Source: Candidatus Aminicenantes bacterium UBA6228
GTDB lineage: Bacteria > Acidobacteriota > Aminicenantia > Aminicenantales > Saccharicenantaceae
Reading direction: 5' to 3'
DNA length: 64,000 nucleotides
Assembly: GCA_002441005.1 (NCBI GenBank)
Contig: DJWO01000009.1
Location: 402,226 to 466,225 of the forward strand
Notes under the pieces: model-generated
Database searches by the model: none
The model's input: only the letters and a program-made list of their open reading frames with translations
What the model was told of the DNA's origin: nothing
Shown here: positions 1,660 to 12,877 of the stretch, piece by piece
Position numbering within the stretch: position 1 is the stretch's first letter
Layout of the letters: every line of letters starts with the position of its first letter
Position numbers and translations under genes: made by a program

Positions 1660-2439
1660 ATGATCATGGTTCTTGATATCGGCAATACGACCATTGCTCT
1701 TGGTGTCTTCCAGGCCAGGAAGCTACTGGCTAACTGGAAAATCAAAAGCGACCGTGAAAAGACTGCCGATGAATACGGCCTGATTCTTTCCAGTTTGCTT
1801 GGCCATGAAAAGCTAACCTGCCAGAAAATCAAAGGGGCGATTGTCTCTTCAGTTGTTCCACCCCTTACCCCGGTCATTCAGCAGGCCATTGAGAGATTTT
1901 TTAAGGTCAAGCCATTGCTGGTTGGCCCCGGTCTTAAGACTGGCCTGCCAATTCTTTATGAAAACCCGGCCGAAGTTGGTTCTGACCGGATTGTGGCGGC
2001 CTGTGCCGCTTTTGAAAAATACGGCGGTCCCTGTCTGGTAGTAGATTTCGGGACTGCTACTACATTTGATGCCATCTCGGCTGCCGGCGAATATCTGGGT
2101 GGATCAATCGCTCCCGGAATTCAGATTTCAGCTGAAGCTCTTTATCTTCGGACAGCCCGCCTGCCCCGGATCGAAATTAAAAAGCCCAGAACAGCTATTG
2201 GCCGAAATACTGTGGCCAGCATGCAATCAGGCCTTTATTTTGGTTATATAGGGCTGGTCAATCAAATTGTTGCCGAGATATCGGCTGAGCTTCAATCCAG
2301 GCCGACGGTCATCGCCACTGGCGGGCAGGCTGATCTGATCGCACTGGAGATTAAGGCCATCAATCAGGTCGAGCCCAACCTGGTCCTCGAAGGGCTGAGG
2401 CTTCTCTATGAAAAGAACCGCCGCCGGGAGAAAAAATGA
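1660..2439 (+). CDS. coaX: Type III pantothenate kinase
   Basis: N-terminal MVLDIGNTTIALGVF and later GTATTFD/ATGG motifs of the acetate/sugar kinase fold, characteristic of CoaX. Confidence 0.85.
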   Translation: MIMVLDIGNTTIALGVFQARKLLANWKIKSDREKTADEYGLILSSLLGHEKLTCQKIKGAIVSSVVPPLTPVIQQAIERFFKVKPLLVGPGLKTGLPILYENPAEVGSDRIVAACAAFEKYGGPCLVVDFGTATTFDAISAAGEYLGGSIAPGIQISAEALYLRTARLPRIEIKKPRTAIGRNTVASMQSGLYFGYIGLVNQIVAEISAELQSRPTVIATGGQADLIALEIKAINQVEPNLVLEGLRLLYEKNRRREKK

Positions 2440-3074
2440 AGACGGATGAAGCCAGTCGCCAGGACTATTATCAGCAAATAGTCCGCCATTTTCTAAAGCA
2501 CCAGACGGCCATGTTCTTCCTGCCGCCCCGCGATCTGGCTTTGATTTCGGATTGGGAAAAGCTGGGTATTCCCCTGGAGCCAATTCTTGAGGGGATTGAT
2601 CAAACTTTCTCGAGACAGCTCAAAAGAAGAAAAAGGCGGAATATTTATTCACTAAGTCAGTGTGAAAAAGAAGTCTTGAAGGCTTATGCCAGCTATCAGG
2701 ACCGCCTGGTGGGCCAGGCTGCACCCAGAATTGAACCAGGTGAAAAGAGAAATAAAGCCAGAATTGAGATCGAGACTTTCCTGGGGCACCTTCCGGTTGA
2801 ATTCGAGGACTTGAGGGAAATATTCAAGCAGGCCCTGGACCTGCTCGCAAGCTCTGAGCCAGATGAAAACAAACTGGAAGAACTGGATGAGGAAATTGAC
2901 CGGCATCTTTTTGAGCTGGCGCCGGAGGCAGAGAAACAGGCCAGCTTAAAGGAGGTTAAACGGGATTTTCCAGACAAGCCAGCCTCCCTCCTGACTGAAA
3001 TTCAGCAAACCAGGATGATTAAGGCCAGAAGACAGGCCAACCAGATTCCTTATGTCTCTCTTTTTTATTATTGA
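2436..3074 (+). CDS. Hypothetical highly charged protein (212 aa) that is translationally coupled to coaX. No recognisable domain.
   Basis: ORF overlaps the coaX stop by 4 nt (ATGA). Protein is Glu/Lys/Arg rich with no motif I can assign. Confidence 0.5.
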   Translation: MKTDEASRQDYYQQIVRHFLKHQTAMFFLPPRDLALISDWEKLGIPLEPILEGIDQTFSRQLKRRKRRNIYSLSQCEKEVLKAYASYQDRLVGQAAPRIEPGEKRNKARIEIETFLGHLPVEFEDLREIFKQALDLLASSEPDENKLEELDEEIDRHLFELAPEAEKQASLKEVKRDFPDKPASLLTEIQQTRMIKARRQANQIPYVSLFYY

Positions 3075-3131
3075 AAACCCGTAAACTATAAGATTGGTAA
3101 ATTTAGATGAACAGAAAATTGGAAGAAAACA

Positions 3132-5195
3132 ATGGAAAAAGAAATAATTGAATATTTAGAAAAAAATAAAAACCCGGTCAGTTTGGTAAAACTGGCCAGG
3201 AGCCTCAACCTGAATAAGACAGAAAGGAAAAAATTAAAGGGACTGCTTGGCTATCTGGACAAAAAAGGGCTCCTCAAATTAAAGGGCGATAAAGTTCAGG
3301 CAATTCCCCGGAATAAAATCAGCCGGGGGATTATCTCTTTAAACAGGCGCGGCTTCGCTTTTGTCACTCCGGAGACAGCTGAAGGCGGTTCAGCCGATAT
3401 TTTTATTCCGCCCGGTCAGACGGCCGGGGCTCTGACCGGTGATTTAGTTGAGGTTATGGTCAGAGAAGAGGGGCCGAAAGGCAAAACAGAAGGACGGGTG
3501 ACCAGAATATTAAGAAGAGGCCGGACCGCAATATTCGGGCTGTATCTTGAAATTAATTATCAGCCTTTTGCTCTGCCCCTGGATACGGTTCATGAAGAAC
3601 CATTTCTGGTGAAACTGAGAAGCCGCCAGAGGCCGAAACCGGGTCAGATAATCGAAATCGATCGCCTATCTCTGGAGGTTAAGAAAATAATTGGCTATCA
3701 GGACGAACCAGGCGTAGATGTTAAAGTTGTTATTGACCAGTACAACCTGCTGGACAAGTTTGGACAGGAAGTGCTGGCCGAAGCAACAGCTCTGCCGGTG
3801 GCTCCCCGGCCTGAAGATTTTTCTGGACGGATAGATTATCGGGACTGGACAACCATCACCATTGACGGAGAAAAGGCTCAGGATTTCGATGATGCCCTGA
3901 GTATCAAAAAGCTGGCGACCGGCCATTATCTCCTGGGAGTCCACATAGCCGATGTCTCTCATTATGTTAAGCCAGGTTCCCCTCTTGACCAGGAAGCTTA
4001 CCTTCGCGGAACCAGCGTTTATTTTCCGGATCTGACCCTGCCCATGCTGCCCGAAAAATTATCCAATGATCTGTGCAGCTTGAGACCCAGGGTGCCCCGC
4101 TTGGCAGTCTCAGCCTTGATAGAAATAGACGAGAGAGGCAATATTATTCAGACTGATTTTCACCCGTCAATTATTCAGACCTCGGAGAGAATGACCTACA
4201 CTTCCGTCTATAAAATCTTTCAGGGAGATCCGGAGGAACGGCGACGCTACAGTTACCTTCTCAACGATCTGTTCGTTATGAGGCACCTGGCTCAGGTGCT
4301 TAAAGCCCGCCGGCTCAAGCAGGGCAGCCTGGATTTCGATTTACTCGAGCCAGAACTGGTCTACCAGGAAGGACTGCTGACAGCGGTGGTGCCTTCCGAG
4401 CGAAATGAGGCCCATTGCCTGGTTGAAGAATTTATGTTAGCGGCCAATGTGGCAGTCGCCACTTATCTAACTGAACTTAATTATGGCTGTCTCTACCGGG
4501 TTCATCCGGCCCCGACCAGATCCGACCTGGAAAAATTAAGGAGCCTGCTGGTTCACTTTGGCCTGGAATTGCCGCGGGCCAGCCAGATAAAGTCAGCTAA
4601 CCTCCAGAAAATTATTGAAAATTTTAAAGGCCAGCCTGAAGAAAAATTCATCACCATTCAGGTTCTAAGGTCAATGCGGCTGGCTGTTTATTCTGACCAG
4701 AACTGCGGCCACTTTGGACTGGCTCAGCCGGTTTATGCCCATTTTACTTCGCCCATCCGGCGCTATCCTGATCTGGTTGTTCATCGCCTGTTAAAAAGAG
4801 CCTTGACCGGGAAAAAGCCCAGACCTCTGCCCTTAGCAGACCTGGCCTTGCACTGTTCCCAGCGGGAACGCCTGGCCGATGAGGCCGAAAGATCCCTCAT
4901 CCAGTGGAGAATAATGCGCCTGCTCAAAGACAAACTGGGCGAGGACTTCAGCGGGATAATAACCGACATCAACCGGGCAGGACTCGTCGTCGAGCTGGAT
5001 GACTATTTTATAGACGGCCTGATACCTTACTCGGCCCTGGGTGATGACTATTTCCTGAAAAGAGATGAGAAAACTCTGCGCGGGCGGAGAAGCGGAGTTA
5101 CCTTCTCCCTTGGAGAAAAAGTAAGAGTCAAAATGGTTAGCTGCAACCCCATTTTAAGAAAGGTTGAGTTTACTCTGGCGCATAAAATTGATTAA
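3132..5195 (+). CDS. rnr: Ribonuclease R (RNB-family 3'-5' exoribonuclease with C-terminal S1 domain)
   Basis: N-terminal HTH/cold-shock-like region. RNB catalytic region with DFDDALS and HFGLAQPVYAHFTSPIRRYPDLVVHR. C-terminal S1-like region. 687 aa. Confidence 0.85.
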   Translation: MEKEIIEYLEKNKNPVSLVKLARSLNLNKTERKKLKGLLGYLDKKGLLKLKGDKVQAIPRNKISRGIISLNRRGFAFVTPETAEGGSADIFIPPGQTAGALTGDLVEVMVREEGPKGKTEGRVTRILRRGRTAIFGLYLEINYQPFALPLDTVHEEPFLVKLRSRQRPKPGQIIEIDRLSLEVKKIIGYQDEPGVDVKVVIDQYNLLDKFGQEVLAEATALPVAPRPEDFSGRIDYRDWTTITIDGEKAQDFDDALSIKKLATGHYLLGVHIADVSHYVKPGSPLDQEAYLRGTSVYFPDLTLPMLPEKLSNDLCSLRPRVPRLAVSALIEIDERGNIIQTDFHPSIIQTSERMTYTSVYKIFQGDPEERRRYSYLLNDLFVMRHLAQVLKARRLKQGSLDFDLLEPELVYQEGLLTAVVPSERNEAHCLVEEFMLAANVAVATYLTELNYGCLYRVHPAPTRSDLEKLRSLLVHFGLELPRASQIKSANLQKIIENFKGQPEEKFITIQVLRSMRLAVYSDQNCGHFGLAQPVYAHFTSPIRRYPDLVVHRLLKRALTGKKPRPLPLADLALHCSQRERLADEAERSLIQWRIMRLLKDKLGEDFSGIITDINRAGLVVELDDYFIDGLIPYSALGDDYFLKRDEKTLRGRRSGVTFSLGEKVRVKMVSCNPILRKVEFTLAHKID

Positions 5196-5223
5196 AAGGC
5201 CAGGAAAGTAAGAGAACAACAAG

Positions 5224-6327
5224 ATGAGCTCAATGGTGAATGTTTTTTATGCCCTGCCCGGTAAGGAGTGGCCTGAAATATCCCGGACAGAAAATAAGAC
5301 CGGCCAGATCACAAACAGCCAGGGTCAGTTTCAGGCAAAAATAGAGACGACCTGTCTGGCTTCACCCGGGTTCAACCTTCCTTACCTGAGAGTAGAAGCC
5401 AGCCTGCCGTTTGACCTCAGATGGGGCGACAGTTTTCACCTTAAACTTCCAGGCTCTGAGCTGACCATCTGGCTCAGAGTTATTTACCCCCAGGCAAGCC
5501 AGATGAAAAAGATAAAAAAAGAGGAAAACCTAATCCAGCGGCTGGATAGATTTGCTGGCGGGGAGAAATCCATGTTGCTGGCCCTGACCGAAGAGGCCGG
5601 GATCAAAGGTCTACGTCAACCAGAGATGGAAGCTTTTTGCCGGTTGGTTTCCTCCCGGCTCAGCCAGTTAGCGGCGGCTCTCGAAAAAGAGGGCCAGCTC
5701 TTTATCCTGGAATTTTCACCTCTTTTTCTCCTGAGCAGGAACAGCTTTGATTTTCTGGCCGGGAAAATGATGAGCTTTATTCAAGATTATCATCAGCGCC
5801 GGCCAGGGGAAACCGGAGCCCCGATAAAAAATCTCAAAGAGAAATTCAGGGTTCCAAAGCCAGTTCTCTGGCTGGCTCTTAACCGGCTGTTAAAGAATAG
5901 GCAAATAAAAATCAGCGGTGAGCAGGTTTCTCTCCGGGGTTTTGAAACCAGCTTGTCGGCAGAAGAAAATGAGATTATGGCTGCCATTGAAAAGATGCTT
6001 CTTGACCAGAAGTTTTCTGCTTTCTCCCTCGACGAACTGGCCAGGACATTTAAGGTCCATCCCAGCCGTCTGGAGACCATGGTTGAACTTCTTCTTCAGA
6101 AAAAGAAAATAGTGGAGAGCCGCGAAGGATTTATCCTGCCAGTCAGCTGGCTGGAAGAAATAAAAAACCAGCTGGCTGAAAAAAAGAAGCGTGGTCAGAG
6201 AGAATTAATGGTTAGCGAGTTTAAAGAAATGACCGGGCTATCAAGAAAATATGCTATTCCTCTTCTCGAATTTCTGGATGAGTTAGGGCTGACCCGCCGT
6301 CTTGGCTCAAAGAGATTGATAGTCTAA
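5224..6327 (+). CDS. Stand-alone SelB C-terminal-like protein (beta-barrel domain III-like plus tandem winged-helix domains), lacking any GTPase domain
   Basis: The C-terminal ~250 aa resemble the SelB winged-helix mRNA-binding domains (e.g. LSRKYAIPLLEFLDELGLTRRLG, ELARTFKVHPSRLETMVELL). No G1-G4 GTPase motifs. ATG at 5224, 29 nt after the rnr stop. Confidence 0.55.
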   Translation: MSSMVNVFYALPGKEWPEISRTENKTGQITNSQGQFQAKIETTCLASPGFNLPYLRVEASLPFDLRWGDSFHLKLPGSELTIWLRVIYPQASQMKKIKKEENLIQRLDRFAGGEKSMLLALTEEAGIKGLRQPEMEAFCRLVSSRLSQLAAALEKEGQLFILEFSPLFLLSRNSFDFLAGKMMSFIQDYHQRRPGETGAPIKNLKEKFRVPKPVLWLALNRLLKNRQIKISGEQVSLRGFETSLSAEENEIMAAIEKMLLDQKFSAFSLDELARTFKVHPSRLETMVELLLQKKKIVESREGFILPVSWLEEIKNQLAEKKKRGQRELMVSEFKEMTGLSRKYAIPLLEFLDELGLTRRLGSKRLIV

Positions 6328-6347
6328 ACCAGCTTGAGCGGCTGAGG

Positions 6348-8465
6348 CTATTTTTTCTCTTCAGGTTCTTCTTCTTTCTGTTCCGGCTGTTTTTTGGTCA
6401 GGGCTGATTTCAACATTTCGGCGAAGAAGCCAAATTTAGCCTCTTGCTTGGCTGCTTCGAGTTCAACCTGGATGGTTTTGTCCTCGGCTTCTGCTCCGTC
6501 TTCTGCTTCTTCTTTCTGAGCCTTAACTGCCTCCAGTGCTTCTATTTCAGATTCTTCCTCGACAATTCTTTCCTCAATCAGCCGACGGTCGCTTTTTTTT
6601 GGCTTGAACTTTTTCTCTTCAACTGGCCCTTTCTTCTTTTTAGCCAGCTTCTCTTCTTTCTCCTTTTCTTTGCCCTTTTTAACCGGTTCGAGAGTAACTT
6701 TGATTTCAGGCTGTTGAGCAGGGGTGATAACCGCTTCTGGCGCCCGGGTTCCTTCCTCTACCTCTTCAGCCCCGGGCTGCTCCGATTTTTCGGTCACAGC
6801 AGATTCCTGGCTGACTGCGGGCCTGGCTTCAGCTCCACTGCCAGCCAGCTGCTCGGCCAATGATTCCAGGAATGAGGCAGCTGCTTTTTCTTCCTCAACA
6901 GGAACTTCCTTCGGTTCAAGCGACTCCTGATAGATATAAATACCTTCTTTTTTCTCTGAAGCTACAAATTCAGGAGCATTATTCAGTACATATTCAACAT
7001 CTTCAGCGGTCGTAGCCTGGAGCAGGTCAACCAGATGGTAGGCCCGGAGAAAATGCAAAGAGCGGTTATTACCGGTCAGCTCCGGTGTCTTGAAGACTTT
7101 TACCAGCAACTGCCGCAGATCTAATCCTTGGCTTTCTTCTTGCCTGCCCAGCAAGTAAGCAACTGCTTCTCTGTCCAGATTCAGGGTCTTATTGGCCAGG
7201 GCCAGGGTAAAGACTTCTTCCTTGGTCAAACTAAAGCGGCCAGTGGCCGGATCATATTCCAGCTGGTAGGTGGCTGTCTTTTTCTTGGATTTCTTGATCC
7301 AGAAAGTAAAGGCATCCTGGGCCTTCCGGTTAATAGTCAGACTTGTCCCCTGAGGAATATTATTGGCTCGGAAATACTCGCCCAGTCCCAGGAAATAATT
7401 CCCCTCGGGATAATAATAAACGGTATAGGCTTTGCCATCTTCGTCATCTACAAGCTGATATTCTCGTGAGGTAAATTCGCGGGACAGACTTCTGGGAAGC
7501 CGGATTGCACCCGATAAAACTTCTCGCCAAGTCAGATAGACTTTAAACGGAAAAGAATCAATCCGGGCGTACTGCAGGCCCTCACCCTGCCCGAGATCAG
7601 GGACTGAAGCCAAGGGACTGGAAATCGGCAGGCCTTCAGGCAGCCTGTTTAGCACACTCTTCAGGTGCCATTTGCCCCAGTTAGCAGTCGACAGGCAGAT
7701 AAAATCACGGCGGTATTTCTTCTCGAGCCAGGCATTTAAACTCAAACAATAAAGCTCAAAGAGATCACTGGATGGCTCCAGGCCAAAATACTTCTTCACT
7801 ATTTCTTCAGTCGAGAGAGAAAACTGGGCCACCAATAGCTCGTCAGAAATTTCTTTGATTTTTTCTTCAGGAATCTCAATCCTTTTGGAACTTAATTGCC
7901 AGAAATCATTCCAGCCAAAGAAAGCAGGTGAGCTGCTCAGGGCTTTTCTCAAGTTTCTCTCGAGGGCTTTAATATCCTTCTCCGTCATTGGCAGTTCAGT
8001 CTGCCGCGGGTCGCGTTCCTCCCCAAGGATCTCAGGCTCTTTCCCCTGCCCGTCAGGATTGGAGGGCAACAAGACTTCGGTTTTAGTCTTTTTCATGTAA
8101 TCAAGATAGCGCCGGAAAGACCCCCCGCCATCATAATCGACTTCCAGCATTTCATAAGGGAAATTAGGCAGCCTGGTCTTGTTTACAACTTTAAGAACCA
8201 CTCCACCCTGAAAATGCTCGGTAGCTTTGCTACCGACCTGGAGATTTTCATCATATTCTTTATAGATAAAATCTCCAATTTCATAACGGGCATTGGGATC
8301 ATAAATTTTAACGGCCTGATGCCGTTCGCTGGCCGTCTTGGCAAAAGCCAGCTTCCCGGTCAGTTCAGCCGCCGGCCAGGGCCGGTTGGTCCTGATTAGT
8401 TCTTGCTCGACTACAGCCATATCTTCAGGGGTAATGGCCGTAATTTTTAAATTTTCTTTATCCAT
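6348..8465 (-). CDS. Hypothetical 705-aa protein; a ~540-aa N-terminal region with no recognisable domain, followed by a Glu/Lys-rich low-complexity C-terminal tail; last gene of the COG2403-arcC-argF operon
   Basis: Long uninterrupted ORF. Its start lies 3 nt after the argF stop on the same strand. C-terminal ~170 aa are EK-rich (KKGKEKEKEEKLAKKKKG...). No motif match that I can recognise. Confidence 0.6.
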   Translation of the reverse strand: MDKENLKITAITPEDMAVVEQELIRTNRPWPAAELTGKLAFAKTASERHQAVKIYDPNARYEIGDFIYKEYDENLQVGSKATEHFQGGVVLKVVNKTRLPNFPYEMLEVDYDGGGSFRRYLDYMKKTKTEVLLPSNPDGQGKEPEILGEERDPRQTELPMTEKDIKALERNLRKALSSSPAFFGWNDFWQLSSKRIEIPEEKIKEISDELLVAQFSLSTEEIVKKYFGLEPSSDLFELYCLSLNAWLEKKYRRDFICLSTANWGKWHLKSVLNRLPEGLPISSPLASVPDLGQGEGLQYARIDSFPFKVYLTWREVLSGAIRLPRSLSREFTSREYQLVDDEDGKAYTVYYYPEGNYFLGLGEYFRANNIPQGTSLTINRKAQDAFTFWIKKSKKKTATYQLEYDPATGRFSLTKEEVFTLALANKTLNLDREAVAYLLGRQEESQGLDLRQLLVKVFKTPELTGNNRSLHFLRAYHLVDLLQATTAEDVEYVLNNAPEFVASEKKEGIYIYQESLEPKEVPVEEEKAAASFLESLAEQLAGSGAEARPAVSQESAVTEKSEQPGAEEVEEGTRAPEAVITPAQQPEIKVTLEPVKKGKEKEKEEKLAKKKKGPVEEKKFKPKKSDRRLIEERIVEEESEIEALEAVKAQKEEAEDGAEAEDKTIQVELEAAKQEAKFGFFAEMLKSALTKKQPEQKEEEPEEKK

Positions 8466-8468
8466 TGG

Positions 8469-9389
8469 TTATTTTTTCCCCATTAGAATCATCATTATGA
8501 CTTTTTGGACATGTAATCTATTTTCAGCCTGATCATAGACTATAGAATTGGGCGAATCAATAATCTCATCTGTTGCTTCTTCTCCCCGGTGGGCCGGCAG
8601 GCAGTGCATGAAATAAGTTCCAGGCTTAGCTCTGGAAAATAATTCCCGGTTAACCTGATAAGGAGCAAAAATCTTCTTTCTGGTTTCCTTTTCTGTTTCC
8701 TGGCCCATCGAGGCCCAGACATCAGTATAGATGGCATCTGCCTCTTTAACCGCTTCGGCCGGGTCATTAGTAATGGTCAGTTCAAAATCAGTGCCGTGCC
8801 CATCTTCCCTGGCCCAGTCTATAATCTCGGCTTTGGGCTCATAGCCAGGCGGAGTCGCTACCGCCATTTTCATCCCGGCTTTAGCTGCAGCCAGCATCAG
8901 GCTGTGAGCCACATTGTTGCCATCACCGACATAAGCCAGCTTCAGGCCAGCCAGGCTACCCTTCTTTTCCAGCAAAGTGAAAAAGTCAGCCATGGCCTGG
9001 CAGGGATGGAGGAGATCAGTCAGGGCATTGATGACTGGCAGCCTGGTGCTTTCTGCCAGTTCGAGGATGATATTATGTCCAAAGGTCCTGATCATAATCC
9101 CATCAACCCAGCGCTCGAGGTTTTTACCTATATCCCGGACGCTTTCGCGAGAACCCATTTGAATATCAGATGGGGCTAGATAAATAGCTTCACCGCCCAA
9201 TTGCAGCATGCCGACTTCAAAGGTCATTCTCGTCCGGAGAGAAGGTTTCTGAAAAATCATAGCCAGAATTTTATCTTTCAGCACCGAGCGGTATTTCCCT
9301 GGATTTTTCTTCATCTTTTCGGTCATATCCAGAATTTCATTGAATTCATAACGGCTCAAATCATGGATGGTAATAAAATCCTTTCTCAT
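8469..9389 (-). CDS. argF: Ornithine carbamoyltransferase
   Basis: Carbamoyl-phosphate-binding STRTR (SLRTRMTFE), HPCQ, DxxxSMG ornithine loop (DVWASMGQE) and the OTC-specific HCLP motif (HCLPAHRGEE). Confidence 0.85.
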   Translation of the reverse strand: MRKDFITIHDLSRYEFNEILDMTEKMKKNPGKYRSVLKDKILAMIFQKPSLRTRMTFEVGMLQLGGEAIYLAPSDIQMGSRESVRDIGKNLERWVDGIMIRTFGHNIILELAESTRLPVINALTDLLHPCQAMADFFTLLEKKGSLAGLKLAYVGDGNNVAHSLMLAAAKAGMKMAVATPPGYEPKAEIIDWAREDGHGTDFELTITNDPAEAVKEADAIYTDVWASMGQETEKETRKKIFAPYQVNRELFSRAKPGTYFMHCLPAHRGEEATDEIIDSPNSIVYDQAENRLHVQKVIMMILMGKK

Positions 9390-10372
9390 CTTTGTCCTCC
9401 GATGGCTAAGTTTGAGCTGGCTGAGGCAGCTGAGACAATTCTCGTTCCGGACCGGTTAATCAGAGCAGCTTTCAGATGACTGGCTGAGGTAATAAGAACT
9501 TCTTTCCCCCCGGCTTCAATATACTCAATAGCCGCTCTAATTTTTGGACCCATGGAACCGGCGGGGAACTCTCCCTCTTCCAGATATTTCCTGGCTTCTT
9601 CTACTGTAATGACAGGCAGAGGTGTCTGGTCAGGCCGCCCAAAATGATAATAGACACGGGGAATGCCAGTCAGAATAATGAACAATTCAGCTCCAACTTC
9701 TCTGGCTAAAAGGCTTGAAGCGTAGTCTTTATCAATGACGGCCTCTACCCCTTCATACAGGCCGCGGCTATTGATGATAACCGGGATGCCGCCGCCTCCG
9801 GCTGCAATCACTACCCGGCCAGACATGACCAGATCTCTGACCATCCATTTGGGGACAATATCAATCGGCAGAGGAGAAGGGACAACCCGCCTGAAACCCC
9901 GCCCCGCATCTTCTACCATTGTCCATTTCTTTTGCCGGGATAGCTGTTGAGCCCTGAATTTAGGGTAAAAAGGGCCAACCGGCTTGGTCGGCTTCCCGAA
10001 AGCCGGATCGTCTTTATCTACTACCACCTGGGTTATAATGGTGGCTACATCCTTATCTATCGATTGACGCCGAAGCTCATTAATGATGGCCTTTTCCAGC
10101 ATGAAACCCATGCTGCCTTCAGTCATGGCGTCACAGACATCAAGGCTGAAAGGCGGAATTTTATTGGCCGCTTCTTCCATTTGAATCAGCAAATTTCCCA
10201 CCTGGGGGCCATTCCCATGAACAACAATAAGCTCATAGCCCTTTTTGATGATCTGGACCATGAGTTCAGCTGCCTTCTGGGCCTGGCGCATTTGCTCTGC
10301 CTGTAAACCTTTCTGGTTTTCAGGCAGAATGGCATTTCCGCCAAAAGCAATCAGTGCAACTTTCGCCTTCAT
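9386..10372 (-). CDS. arcC: Carbamate kinase
   Basis: Amino-acid-kinase family N-terminus (KVALIAFGGNAI...VVHGNGPQVG) and length ~328 aa typical of carbamate kinase. Overlaps the argF start by 4 nt. Confidence 0.75.
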   Translation of the reverse strand: MKAKVALIAFGGNAILPENQKGLQAEQMRQAQKAAELMVQIIKKGYELIVVHGNGPQVGNLLIQMEEAANKIPPFSLDVCDAMTEGSMGFMLEKAIINELRRQSIDKDVATIITQVVVDKDDPAFGKPTKPVGPFYPKFRAQQLSRQKKWTMVEDAGRGFRRVVPSPLPIDIVPKWMVRDLVMSGRVVIAAGGGGIPVIINSRGLYEGVEAVIDKDYASSLLAREVGAELFIILTGIPRVYYHFGRPDQTPLPVITVEEARKYLEEGEFPAGSMGPKIRAAIEYIEAGGKEVLITSASHLKAALINRSGTRIVSAASASSNLAIGGQR

Positions 10373-10450
10373 CTTCTGCCGCCTTAACCTTGCCTGTTTT
10401 TATCTTCTGTGATTTTTCCCGGTAGCGTCCATTCCTGCCGTCACTCAGGT

Positions 10451-11755
10451 TCAAAATTCCTTTAAAACAGATTTAATATTGGGCTGGCCAATTTCCTCAA
10501 GTTCATAGCGCACCCGGAGCATGGGTTTGTTAACTTTAATTACCCGGTTGAGATCAATAGGCGTAGCGCTTATCACCAGATCACAATCTATTTTGTTGAT
10601 GGTGGCAGCCAGTTCTCTCGTCTGTTTTTCTCCGTAACCCATAGCTGGCAGCACCTTATCCAGATGGTTATATTTTTCAAAGGTCTTTTTAATGCTGCCC
10701 ACAGCATATGGCCTGGGGTCAATGATCAAGGCTGCTTTGTATTTCTGAGCAGCCACAATGCCCGCTCCATAGCGCATACCACCATGAGTCAGAGTCGGCC
10801 CATCCTCAATGACCAGAACCTTTTTACCGGTAATTTGAGAGCCGTCATCAACAAAAATTGGTGAATTGGCTTTAATGACTTTAGCCCTGGGGTTAATCTT
10901 CTTGATGTTATCCATCACCAGTTGAATTTTTTCCGGCTCAGCTGTATCCATTTTATTAACGACATAGACGTCAGCCCGGCGGAAATTGGTTTCACCGGGA
11001 TGATAACTTAGCTCATGACCAGCCCGGTGAGGGTCAACCACGACTATTTCCAGATCTGATTTATAGAAAGAAAAATCATTATTACCGCCGTCCCAGATGA
11101 TGACGTCGGCTTCCTTTTCCGCCTGTTTCAGAATAGCGCCATAATCAACACCGGCATAAACGATGATACCATTATCAATATGGGGTTCATATTCTTCTCT
11201 CTCTTCAATTGTGCATTCATACCGGTCAAGGTCTTCATAAGTAGCAAATCTCTGAACCTTCTGCTTTTCCAGGTCGCCATAGGGCATAGGATGCCTGATG
11301 ACCACCACCCGGCGCCCTTTAGCCTTCAGGGTCAGAGCAACTTTTCTGGTGGTCTGGCTTTTGCCCGAACCGGTTCTGATCGCGCAGACAGAAACTACCG
11401 GTTTACGGCTCTTAATCATCGTATCATCCGGACCGAGCAGAACAAAGCTGGCCCCCGCCCCCATCACCTCCGAGGCCTTGTGCATCACATAGTCATGAGG
11501 AACATCGCTATAAGCGAAATGGACCTCATCGACCTTATATTTCTGGATGAGATCAGTCAATTCAGATTCAGCATAGATTGGAATTCCTTTGGCATAAAGC
11601 TTTCCGGCCAGAGCCGCCGGATATTTTCTGCCTTCAATATCCGGGATCTGGGTAGCAGTAAAAGCTACTACCTGGTAATCTGGGTTATCACGAAAATAGA
11701 CATTGAAATTGTGAAAATCACGTCCGGCCGCTCCCATAATAATGACTTTTCTCAT
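10451..11755 (-). CDS. COG2403-type predicted P-loop protein (cyclic 2,3-diphosphoglycerate synthetase-like family), first gene of the operon with arcC/argF
   Basis: MobB-like P-loop CAIRTGSGKSQT. I prefer the start at ATG 11755 (MRKVIIMGAAGRDFHNF), which has the SD AAGGAG 6 nt upstream; the track's TTG at 11818 is an upstream extension. Family assignment is from memory, not a search. Confidence 0.5.
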   Translation of the reverse strand: MRKVIIMGAAGRDFHNFNVYFRDNPDYQVVAFTATQIPDIEGRKYPAALAGKLYAKGIPIYAESELTDLIQKYKVDEVHFAYSDVPHDYVMHKASEVMGAGASFVLLGPDDTMIKSRKPVVSVCAIRTGSGKSQTTRKVALTLKAKGRRVVVIRHPMPYGDLEKQKVQRFATYEDLDRYECTIEEREEYEPHIDNGIIVYAGVDYGAILKQAEKEADVIIWDGGNNDFSFYKSDLEIVVVDPHRAGHELSYHPGETNFRRADVYVVNKMDTAEPEKIQLVMDNIKKINPRAKVIKANSPIFVDDGSQITGKKVLVIEDGPTLTHGGMRYGAGIVAAQKYKAALIIDPRPYAVGSIKKTFEKYNHLDKVLPAMGYGEKQTRELAATINKIDCDLVISATPIDLNRVIKVNKPMLRVRYELEEIGQPNIKSVLKEF

Positions 11756-11791
11756 TTCCAAGCTCCTTATCATAATTTTTTTATAATTAGC

Positions 11792-11818
11792 TTGATTGCT
11801 ATCCTGACCGGCAATCAA
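11792..11818. promoter_or_regulatory. Perfect 8-bp inverted repeat TTGATTGC-N11-GCAATCAA, 37-63 bp upstream of the COG2403-arcC-argF operon start; candidate operator
   Basis: Read directly from sequence. Lies in the promoter/5' leader of the minus-strand operon. Confidence 0.3.
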
Positions 11819-12802: not shown

Positions 12803-12877
12803 AGGCGCGTAGCTCAGTGGGAGAGCGCTTCCTTGACGCGGAAGAGGCCGTGGGTTCAATCCCCTCCGCGCCTACCA
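12803..12877 (+). tRNA. tRNA-Val (anticodon GAC) with encoded 3' CCA
   Basis: Manual fold: acceptor AGGCGCG pairs with CGCGCCT. D-arm GCTC/GAGC. Anticodon stem CTTCC/GGAAG with loop TTGACGC (anticodon GAC). T-arm GTGGG-TTCAATC-CCCTC with one U-U mismatch. Discriminator A plus CCA. Confidence 0.75.

Follow-up and report, generated by a model that had tools for sequence, protein, structure and literature searches.

The winged-helix arm of SelB, the elongation factor for selenocysteine (Sec), is the textbook reader of messenger RNA (mRNA) hairpins at the ribosome and has so far been studied only inside the selenocysteine system. In the available text of PMC4605307, the third and fourth winged-helix domains of SelB (WHD3 and WHD4) bind the selenocysteine insertion sequence (SECIS) hairpin, a docking model brings WHD1 and WHD2 into contact with helix 16 of 16S ribosomal RNA (rRNA) near the mRNA entrance, and the limits of A. 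aeolicus SelB are given as residues 266-342 for domain III (D3), 343-361 for the N-C spacer and 362-582 for WHD1-4. The available part of a 2025 preprint (10.1101/2025.02.04.636165) summarises the ribosome-bound SelB structure in the same way as this docking model. The present analysis concerns a gene that encodes such an arm by itself. It lies at positions 5224-6327 of a 64,000-nucleotide stretch, hereafter the window, taken from contig DJWO01000009.1 (positions 402,226 to 466,225, forward strand) of Candidatus Aminicenantes bacterium UBA6228 (assembly GCA_002441005.1). The gene is intact and conserved, and it encodes SelB domain III, the N-C spacer helix and WHD1-4 without a G domain (domain I, D1) or domain II (D2). 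Its features are as follows.

5224..6327, + strand: gene for the stand-alone SelB-derived protein (P0001, 367 aa), from the list of open reading frames (ORFs) and the translation, from Pfam, NCBIfam and PDB matches, and from 291 homologues, of ~360 aa in Aminicenantes
5233..5487, + strand: beta-barrel homologous to domain III of SelB and EF-Tu, residues 4-88 (structure model, VIA-align, hhalign)
5521..5556, + strand: helix matching the SelB N-C spacer, residues 100-111 (structure model; placed between D3 and WHD1 as in 4ZU9, according to the available text of PMC4605307)
5563..5934, + strand: WHD1 (residues 114-171) and WHD2 (172-237), from the 1lva and 2v9v alignments and SelB-wing_2
5959..6321, + strand: WHD3 (residues 246-306) and WHD4 (307-366), the counterpart of the SECIS-RNA-binding pair of SelB, from 1wsu_A, 2pjp_A and SelB-wing_3

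The ORF opens with ATG and runs through 367 codons with no internal stop (ORF list, translation), which bears out the view of the earlier note, made from the letters alone, that the gene is intact and has its own start. In the Pfam scan, the protein was assigned to SelB-wing_3 (PF09107; residues 326-365, E 6e-17, 61.4 bits against a gathering cut-off of 23.2) and SelB-wing_2 (PF09106; residues 186-237, E 1.9e-6, 28.3 bits against 22.3), both above their gathering scores and thus not to an unrelated winged-helix family; the same scan gave no match to GTP_EFTU or GTP_EFTU_D2, and none to Beta-barrel_SelB at E<=1. The SelB equivalog TIGR00475 reached 34.4 bits (cut-off 242.25) and matched only positions 457-578 of its 581, that is, its last 122, from which it follows that the G domain is missing. 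Among PDB chains, the M. thermoacetica SelB fragment 1LVA aligned to residues 129-367 with E 2.7e-18 (phmmer).

An AlphaFold2 model of the 367-aa protein, built on 38 family members, had a mean predicted local distance difference test (pLDDT) of 89 and a predicted template modelling score (pTM) of 0.70. SelB structures ranked first for this model in Foldseek (1lva, E 2.9e-15; E. coli SelB on the ribosome, 5lzb_z, TM 0.67 over 365 columns). With VIA-align, 1lva gave Z 18.5 (model 112-367 on SelB 377-632), which together with the two Pfam matches establishes all four C-terminal winged-helix domains; 1wsu_A, which is WHD3-4 with SECIS RNA, gave Z 16.8 with a root-mean-square deviation (rmsd) of 1.7 over 122 aligned residues (model 244-367 on SelB 511-632); 2pjp_A gave Z 14.2 over the WHD3-WHD4 region, and 2v9v gave Z 11.6 over model 112-244. 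Both 1wsu_A and 2pjp_A are SelB-SECIS RNA complexes according to their PDB entry titles. The whole model was aligned to E. coli SelB (5lzb_z; Z 14.1, 338 aligned, rmsd 5.2, model 4-367 on SelB 264-606) and to A. aeolicus SelB (4zu9; Z 13.3, 314 aligned, model 4-367 on SelB 268-581). The domain III barrel was found both by these fold alignments and by profile-profile alignment from SelB position 270: the family alignment (A1) matched that of 36 full SelBs (A3) with a probability of 100% and E 1.3e-59 over 361 columns, A1 9-370 corresponding to SelB 270-639 (hhalign). Conversely, the family profile matched full-length SelBs (~630-650 aa) with its positions from ~7-20 to 362 (E 1e-45 to 1e-32), covering SelB from residue ~270-290 through the C-terminal end. 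The fold alignment, read with the domain limits of A. aeolicus SelB, therefore places the start of the protein exactly at the boundary between D2 and D3. The reading of the earlier note, a stand-alone SelB domain III with tandem winged helices and no G domain, thus stands on Pfam, TIGR00475, PDB and fold evidence, and the comparison with E. coli and M. thermoacetica SelB structures that it called for yields Z scores of 14.1-18.5 (5lzb_z, 1lva and 1wsu_A). The GTP-binding domain I with its G motifs and the domain II beta-barrel, which forms the Sec-binding pocket together with D1, are both absent, and the protein therefore cannot carry Sec-tRNA or hydrolyse GTP. Homologues carry the automatic name "SelB C-terminal domain-containing protein" at NCBI. 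To our knowledge, there is no curated family for stand-alone Aminicenantia SelB C-terminal proteins, and no paper describing a bacterial SelB D3-WHD protein encoded on its own came up in literature searches.

In the family alignment, conservation is highest in WHD4 (mean majority-residue share 0.71) and lowest in D3 (0.37). Invariant columns number 29 in the 38-sequence alignment, 13 of them within residues 333-352, and a family-specific invariant motif, I161/F164/P166, occurs in WHD1. Across 36 SelBs, six residues of the winged-helix half never vary (R610, K611, P615, D621, T626 and R628 in P0171 numbering); they align to R341, K342, P346, D352, T357 and R359 of the 367-aa protein (hhalign), and all six are kept in at least 90% of the 38 stand-alone proteins. 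Because WHD4 is the best-conserved domain and all six SelB-invariant positions are kept, a putative SECIS-type surface for binding RNA hairpins appears to have been retained, and the pattern supports this at the level of sequence. The gene evolves under purifying selection, with ratios of nonsynonymous to synonymous substitution rates (dN/dS) of 0.118-0.161 in four pairwise Nei-Gojobori comparisons: 0.118 with the 96% identical relative L048 (dN 0.017, dS 0.141), and 0.137, 0.134 and 0.161 with L052, L049 and L053, respectively, for which dS is near or beyond saturation.

The same fold comparison bears on the possibility that the product is a DNA-binding winged-helix transcription regulator merely descended from SelB. 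Winged helices are typical readers of DNA, and single WHDs of the model do align to DNA binders of the IclR, MarR, Rrf2 and Z-alpha types with Z 8.6-10.2 (VIA-align). The RNA-binding fragments of SelB match far better, however (Z 14-18.5), the WHD4 signature of SelB is kept nearly letter for letter, and no operator-like conserved intergenic DNA was seen beside the gene. A role as a DNA-binding regulator is accordingly considered improbable.

A word-indexed protein search found 291 relatives; among the 120 matches listed, most are 354-391 aa long, with 99-35% identity, and their sources are named Aminicenantes, Saccharicenans or Acidobacteriota. In a class sample of 201 genomes drawn evenly from Aminicenantia (Acidobacteriota), the family profile matched 199, including all 134 of the high-quality ones. 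The window protein matches this profile with E 2.0e-145 and has the size, the D3 plus WHD1-4 layout and the motifs of the stand-alone family. A further phylum sample comprised 300 other Acidobacteriota genomes (G223, G246 and G341 among them are flagged as unpublished, and no conclusion depends on these three); here, among the matches listed, most are ~620-830-aa frames, that is, full SelB. Within the genomes sampled, the stand-alone form is thus a feature of the class Aminicenantia. Short frames were also noted among the non-class Acidobacteriota matches, in G398, G361, G388, G254, G400 and G301. Of ten short representatives checked as possible stand-alone forms, nine were set aside, being either singletons on contigs of <=3.5 kb or members of clusters shared with longer, SelB-length proteins, so that they look like SelB fragments. 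Plasmid records held solely full selB genes or unannotated matches. The Atlas lists clusters without a G domain in other phyla, which are unverified leads.

The occurrence of the gene is independent of the Sec trait. The genome that contains the window (2.46 Mb in 14 contigs, 90.4% complete) has no full-length SelB over the cut-off, its best matches being other translational GTPases, and its sole match to the C-terminal part of the SelB profile is the gene at 5224-6327. In the same 90.4% complete genome, SelA was not found, no SelD exceeded the cut-off (best 64.3 bits against 125), and no tRNA-Sec was found by ARAGORN; co-occurrence with selA, selD and tRNA-Sec, as expected for a SelB elongation factor, is therefore lacking. 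The earlier note had seen no selA or selD in the window, and this now extends to the whole genome. Across the class sample, SelB over the cut-off was found in 42 of the 201 genomes, and none of the 14 genomes from the genus of the window had one, so that ~157 of the 199 carriers of the stand-alone gene have none. Where both occur, the stand-alone gene and the full selB are separate loci, and G182, G133, G111, G109 and G145 carry SelB frames of ~642 aa. In genomes of genus g2 (e.g. G139:C11, G099:C9 and G075:C4), the SelB model matches only through its positions 1-345, in open frames of 645-1063 aa; these partial matches may stem from C-terminal halves that have diverged or been extended, or from open frames caused by high GC.

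Two explanations that tie the protein to selenocysteine were weighed on this distribution. In the first, the G-less SelB would compete in selenocysteine decoding or regulate it, occupying SECIS hairpins and thereby tuning the expression of selAB or the insertion of Sec. In its favour, C-terminal fragments of SelB can, in isolation, bind SECIS and inhibit Sec insertion in E. coli, the protein and SelB have nearly the same WHD4 consensus, and the protein coexists with a full SelB in the 42 genomes that have one. This account fails to cover the roughly 157 carriers that lack SelB over the cut-off, among them all 14 genomes of its own genus, nor does it suit the own genome, which lacks selA, selD and tRNA-Sec as well; selection is also still strong in this lineage without Sec machinery. 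SECIS competition could be an ancestral role in Sec-positive lineages, yet it cannot explain most carriers and is highly improbable as the function of the protein. In the second, the gene would be a decaying remnant, the frameshifted tail of selB or one half of a split selB, and the absence of Sec machinery from the genome is what a remnant would predict. The earlier note had offered a remnant of selenium-system loss as one of its two possibilities, and this reading is rejected: the frame is intact, the start is conserved, relatives number in the hundreds, 199 of 201 class genomes are matched, some of them alongside SelB, and dN/dS is 0.12-0.16 (0.118 against the 96% identical relative). In the tree, moreover, the Aminicenantia SelBs group in a clade of their own (support 100), apart from the stand-alone proteins. 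A frameshifted or split selB was likewise ruled out by the intact ORF and by the lack of any SelB over the cut-off, or of a SelB-type N-terminal half, elsewhere in the genome; rnr, which encodes RNase R, fills the DNA up to 28 nt before the ATG and therefore leaves no room for an upstream G-domain remnant. That the gene is not the tail of a frameshifted selB had been the position of the earlier note too.

Taken together, the 367-aa protein is, with moderate confidence, read as a Sec-independent RNA-hairpin binder that acts in RNA turnover or translation. Given its wide occurrence regardless of selenocysteine use, the SelB arm has probably been recruited as an RNA-binding protein in its own right. 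In the proposed course of events, selB was duplicated, the GTPase end was lost from one copy, and the C-terminal half would have become fixed as a paralogue in the class Aminicenantia, no longer serving selenocysteine decoding. With the WHD3/WHD4 surface that it retains, which in SelB recognises the SECIS hairpin, the protein may bind a stem-loop RNA, and, by analogy with SelB, WHD1 and WHD2 might touch 16S helix 16 near the mRNA entrance. In most lineages it would be produced together with RNase R from one operon, and such a shared operon would place it in RNA turnover or in the ribosome-linked handling of structured RNA. It could hold hairpin RNA, or dock at the mRNA entrance of the 30S subunit as the WHDs of SelB do, allowing either RNase R or the ribosome to act on it. 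The parts of this proposal that we infer are that RNA is bound, what kind of target it is, and any cooperation with RNase R. The other possibility raised in the earlier note, a winged-helix RNA-hairpin-binding regulator derived from SelB, fits the profile, fold and WHD4 conservation evidence as far as a hairpin binder is concerned; the label "regulator" is not carried over.

Upstream of the SelB-like gene in the window lies a conserved string of genes, as follows.

886-1647, + strand: birA-like ligase (Pfam, NCBIfam)
1660-2439, + strand: type III pantothenate kinase coaX (Pfam, NCBIfam)
2436-3074, + strand: lineage-specific 212-aa protein, with no Pfam or NCBIfam match and a conserved place in the string
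3132..5195, + strand: rnr, RNase R of 687 aa (Pfam RNB, OB_RNB, CSD2 and S1; TIGR02063, 677.9 bits against a cut-off of 597.85)

From the end of rnr at 5195 to the ATG at 5224 there are 28 nt. A neighbourhood sample covered 80 loci of public genomes, and in 76 of them the gene immediately preceding, in the same orientation, is rnr; of the four exceptions, two have no upstream DNA, and in two the SelB-like gene is preceded immediately by coaX and the 212-aa gene, with no rnr. The order coaX, 212-aa gene, rnr, SelB-like gene holds in most of the 80. Spacing between rnr and the SelB-like gene was read in 60 pairs for which both ORFs could be called: the two overlap by a 4-nt stop/start in 22 and by 1 nt in one, a gap of 9-30 nt separates them in 24, and 13 gave unreliable starts. 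Among 20 loci taken across the class, rnr is directly upstream in 13, pgi intervenes in three and one small ORF in one (family f13); of the remaining three, one lies at a contig edge and two (family f10) are in genomes without RNase R over the cut-off. In every sampled family that possesses RNase R, rnr is no further than two genes from the SelB-like gene. RNase R over the cut-off was found in 116 of the 201 class genomes and in 104 of 107 genomes of the own order. The rnr link is old and tight, and it is not obligatory.

Several observations weigh against an RNA-hairpin binder that works beside RNase R. In three genomes from the same order as the window (G021, G081 and G113; 88-93% complete), coaX, the 212-aa gene and the SelB-like gene are contiguous with rnr cleanly absent, and no RNase R was found elsewhere in them; their SelB-like proteins are well conserved (E 1e-131 to 1e-144 to the family profile). 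In family f10, RNase R over the cut-off was found in 0 of 72 genomes, 16 of which have an RNB-core paralogue of ~500 aa only, and a divergent SelB-like homologue is kept in 70. Because these three genomes and family f10 keep the gene without RNase R, the SelB-like protein is not an obligate partner of RNase R. The linkage may in part be inherited gene order, since birA and coaX also belong to the string. As regards an RNA target, none of the Rfam families SECIS_2-5 (RF01988-RF01991) matched the own genome at E<=1, and the Rfam scan of the window gave a single match, a tRNA at 12803-12874 (+). The spacers flanking rnr are short or not conserved: 57 nt precede rnr, 28 nt precede the SelB-like gene and 20 nt follow it, all AT-rich or too short, and the spacer before rnr is not conserved in 15 relatives. 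Winged helices, finally, more often bind DNA, and the evidence for expression is weak: RNA contigs 95-99% alike cover 5175-5402 and 6130-6584, not 5487-6074, and they come as identical contigs from three metatranscriptome runs of one study, with DNA carry-over possible. The 5' contig does not bridge rnr and the SelB-like gene, because only 21 of its letters lie inside rnr. Summed contig depth in the RNA libraries is ~30 at 2988-3281, the junction of the 212-aa gene and rnr, against 6-10 in the flanks, about threefold, which is no measure of expression because the contigs come from one study.

In another explanation, the protein would serve RNase R as an accessory or adaptor subunit, binding the enzyme physically and delivering hairpin RNAs or hairpin-stalled ribosomes to it, in compensation for the basic C-terminal tail that this RNase R lacks. 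The position of rnr directly upstream in 76 of 80 loci and the linkage across families, with at most two genes between, favour such a partnership, and the 4-nt overlaps in 22 of 60 pairs suggest translational coupling. The RNase R of the window, moreover, ends just after its S1 domain, and its match to the 813-position E. coli-type model is confined to positions 24-724; the enzyme thus lacks the C-terminal tail of that model, which makes a helper that brings structured RNA or ribosomes plausible, albeit unproven. Against this partnership stand the three genomes and the whole of family f10 that keep the protein without RNase R, the unrelated housekeeping genes that are also among the neighbours, and the lack of any RNase R-SelB-like fusion. 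Candidate natural fusions in frames of 620-1067 aa (L034, L092, L093 and L098) proved to be overlapping high-GC frames and, in one case, a frameshifted rnr, and were rejected as artefacts. A direct role as an RNase R adaptor is therefore considered rather unlikely. A more elaborate variant of the hairpin-binder proposal, which is offered as speculation with a low chance of being right, is a surveillance device that would dock at the 30S mRNA entrance, sense a stem-loop on the message or a tRNA-like RNA, and hand it over to the co-encoded, tail-less RNase R; if true, it would be an undescribed way of coupling ribosomes to 3'-5' decay. Replacement of trans-translation was considered and dismissed, as SmpB (192 bits, over the cut-off) and transfer-messenger RNA (tmRNA) are both present in the genome.

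Other features of the neighbourhood deserve mention. The 212-aa gene overlaps coaX by 4 nt, occupies the corresponding position in 70 of the 80 related loci (tblastn), stays beside the SelB-like gene even where rnr is lost, and encodes a protein that falls in unnamed Aminicenantota/Acidobacteriota clusters of the Atlas. Downstream, a convergent operon at 6348-11818 (-) encodes a 705-aa protein, ornithine carbamoyltransferase, carbamate kinase and a 455-aa protein, and in most related loci the 705-aa gene follows the SelB-like gene in convergent orientation. In family f10 (e.g. L032 and L033), the divergent SelB-like gene adjoins a gene for a tetratricopeptide repeat (TPR) protein.

Variant forms of the protein occur within the class. 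Families f4 and f5 have short forms of ~260-290 aa that match only profile positions ~110-362, that is, WHD1-4, and the divergent forms of family f10 are ~350 aa long (E 1e-9 to 1e-26 to the family profile). Family f13 has forms of 467-471 aa in six genomes; a structure model of this form (pLDDT 81, built from seven sequences) shows two beta-barrels ahead of the WHDs, which align to domains 2 and 3 of EF-Tu/SelB (1d2e_A, Z 9.8, 154 aligned, model 59-214 on 250-446), and it aligns to 5lzb_z with Z 17.4 over model 11-463 (VIA-align). No extra domain was found by Pfam in the 470-aa, 460-aa and 347-aa variants. There are thus three architectures: D2-D3-WHD (~470 aa), D3-WHD (~360 aa) and WHD-only (~260 aa). 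In a maximum-likelihood tree built quickly from 92 rows, a weakly supported branch (70) sets 48 stand-alone proteins to one side, the f9 and f13 forms lie on long branches adjoining SelBs, and five Aminicenantia SelBs form the clade mentioned above (support 100) within the SelB cloud, not as sister to the stand-alone proteins. The tree fits an old duplication, after which D1, D2 and, in some lines, D3 may have been lost step by step, in an order that is unproven. Separately, a cluster represented by P0187 (374-376 aa; its contigs reach 637 kb) constitutes a second SelB-like family without a G domain, of unassigned taxon, whose Pfam matches comprise WHDs only; its proteins fall inside true SelBs in the tree, and it may be an independent truncation elsewhere.

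The arm that reads hairpins for SelB is therefore found alone in a whole class, under selection and mostly without selenocysteine, from which it follows that this module can serve another purpose. The stand-alone protein offers a natural, small and well-folding means to ask what else such a reader recognises, its deep linkage to RNase R is a concrete lead into the RNA decay of an uncultured lineage, and the series of D2-D3-WHD, D3-WHD and WHD-only forms documents stepwise domain loss from a translation GTPase. Compared with SelB itself, the protein has the domain III barrel, the N-C spacer and the four tandem winged helices in the same order (fold Z 13-18.5) and a nearly identical WHD4 consensus (FK.MTGLSRKYAIPLLE.LD vs FK.L.G.SRKYAIPLLEYLD). 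In contrast to SelB, it has neither the GTPase domain nor domain II, it is present without selA, selD, selC or selB, its D3 has diverged so far as to give no Beta-barrel_SelB match, its WHD1 and WHD3/4 bear family-specific invariant motifs, and its gene is encoded downstream of rnr, not with selA. Recombinant SelB fragments (M. thermoacetica 377-634 and 512-634; the mRNA-binding domain of E. coli SelB) fold and bind SECIS RNA alone, according to PDB titles, and the natural ~260-aa WHD1-4 forms have the same extent as recombinant SelB WHD fragments. Those fragments are laboratory truncations of a Sec factor, whereas the gene described here is natural, separately encoded and conserved, and most of its carriers lack Sec. 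The archaeal aSelBL, as described in the available text of PMC3037878, is likewise a paralogue of SelB that persists in archaea without selenocysteine. It keeps, however, the opposite half of the factor, being an EF-Tu-like GTPase without the bacterial winged helices.

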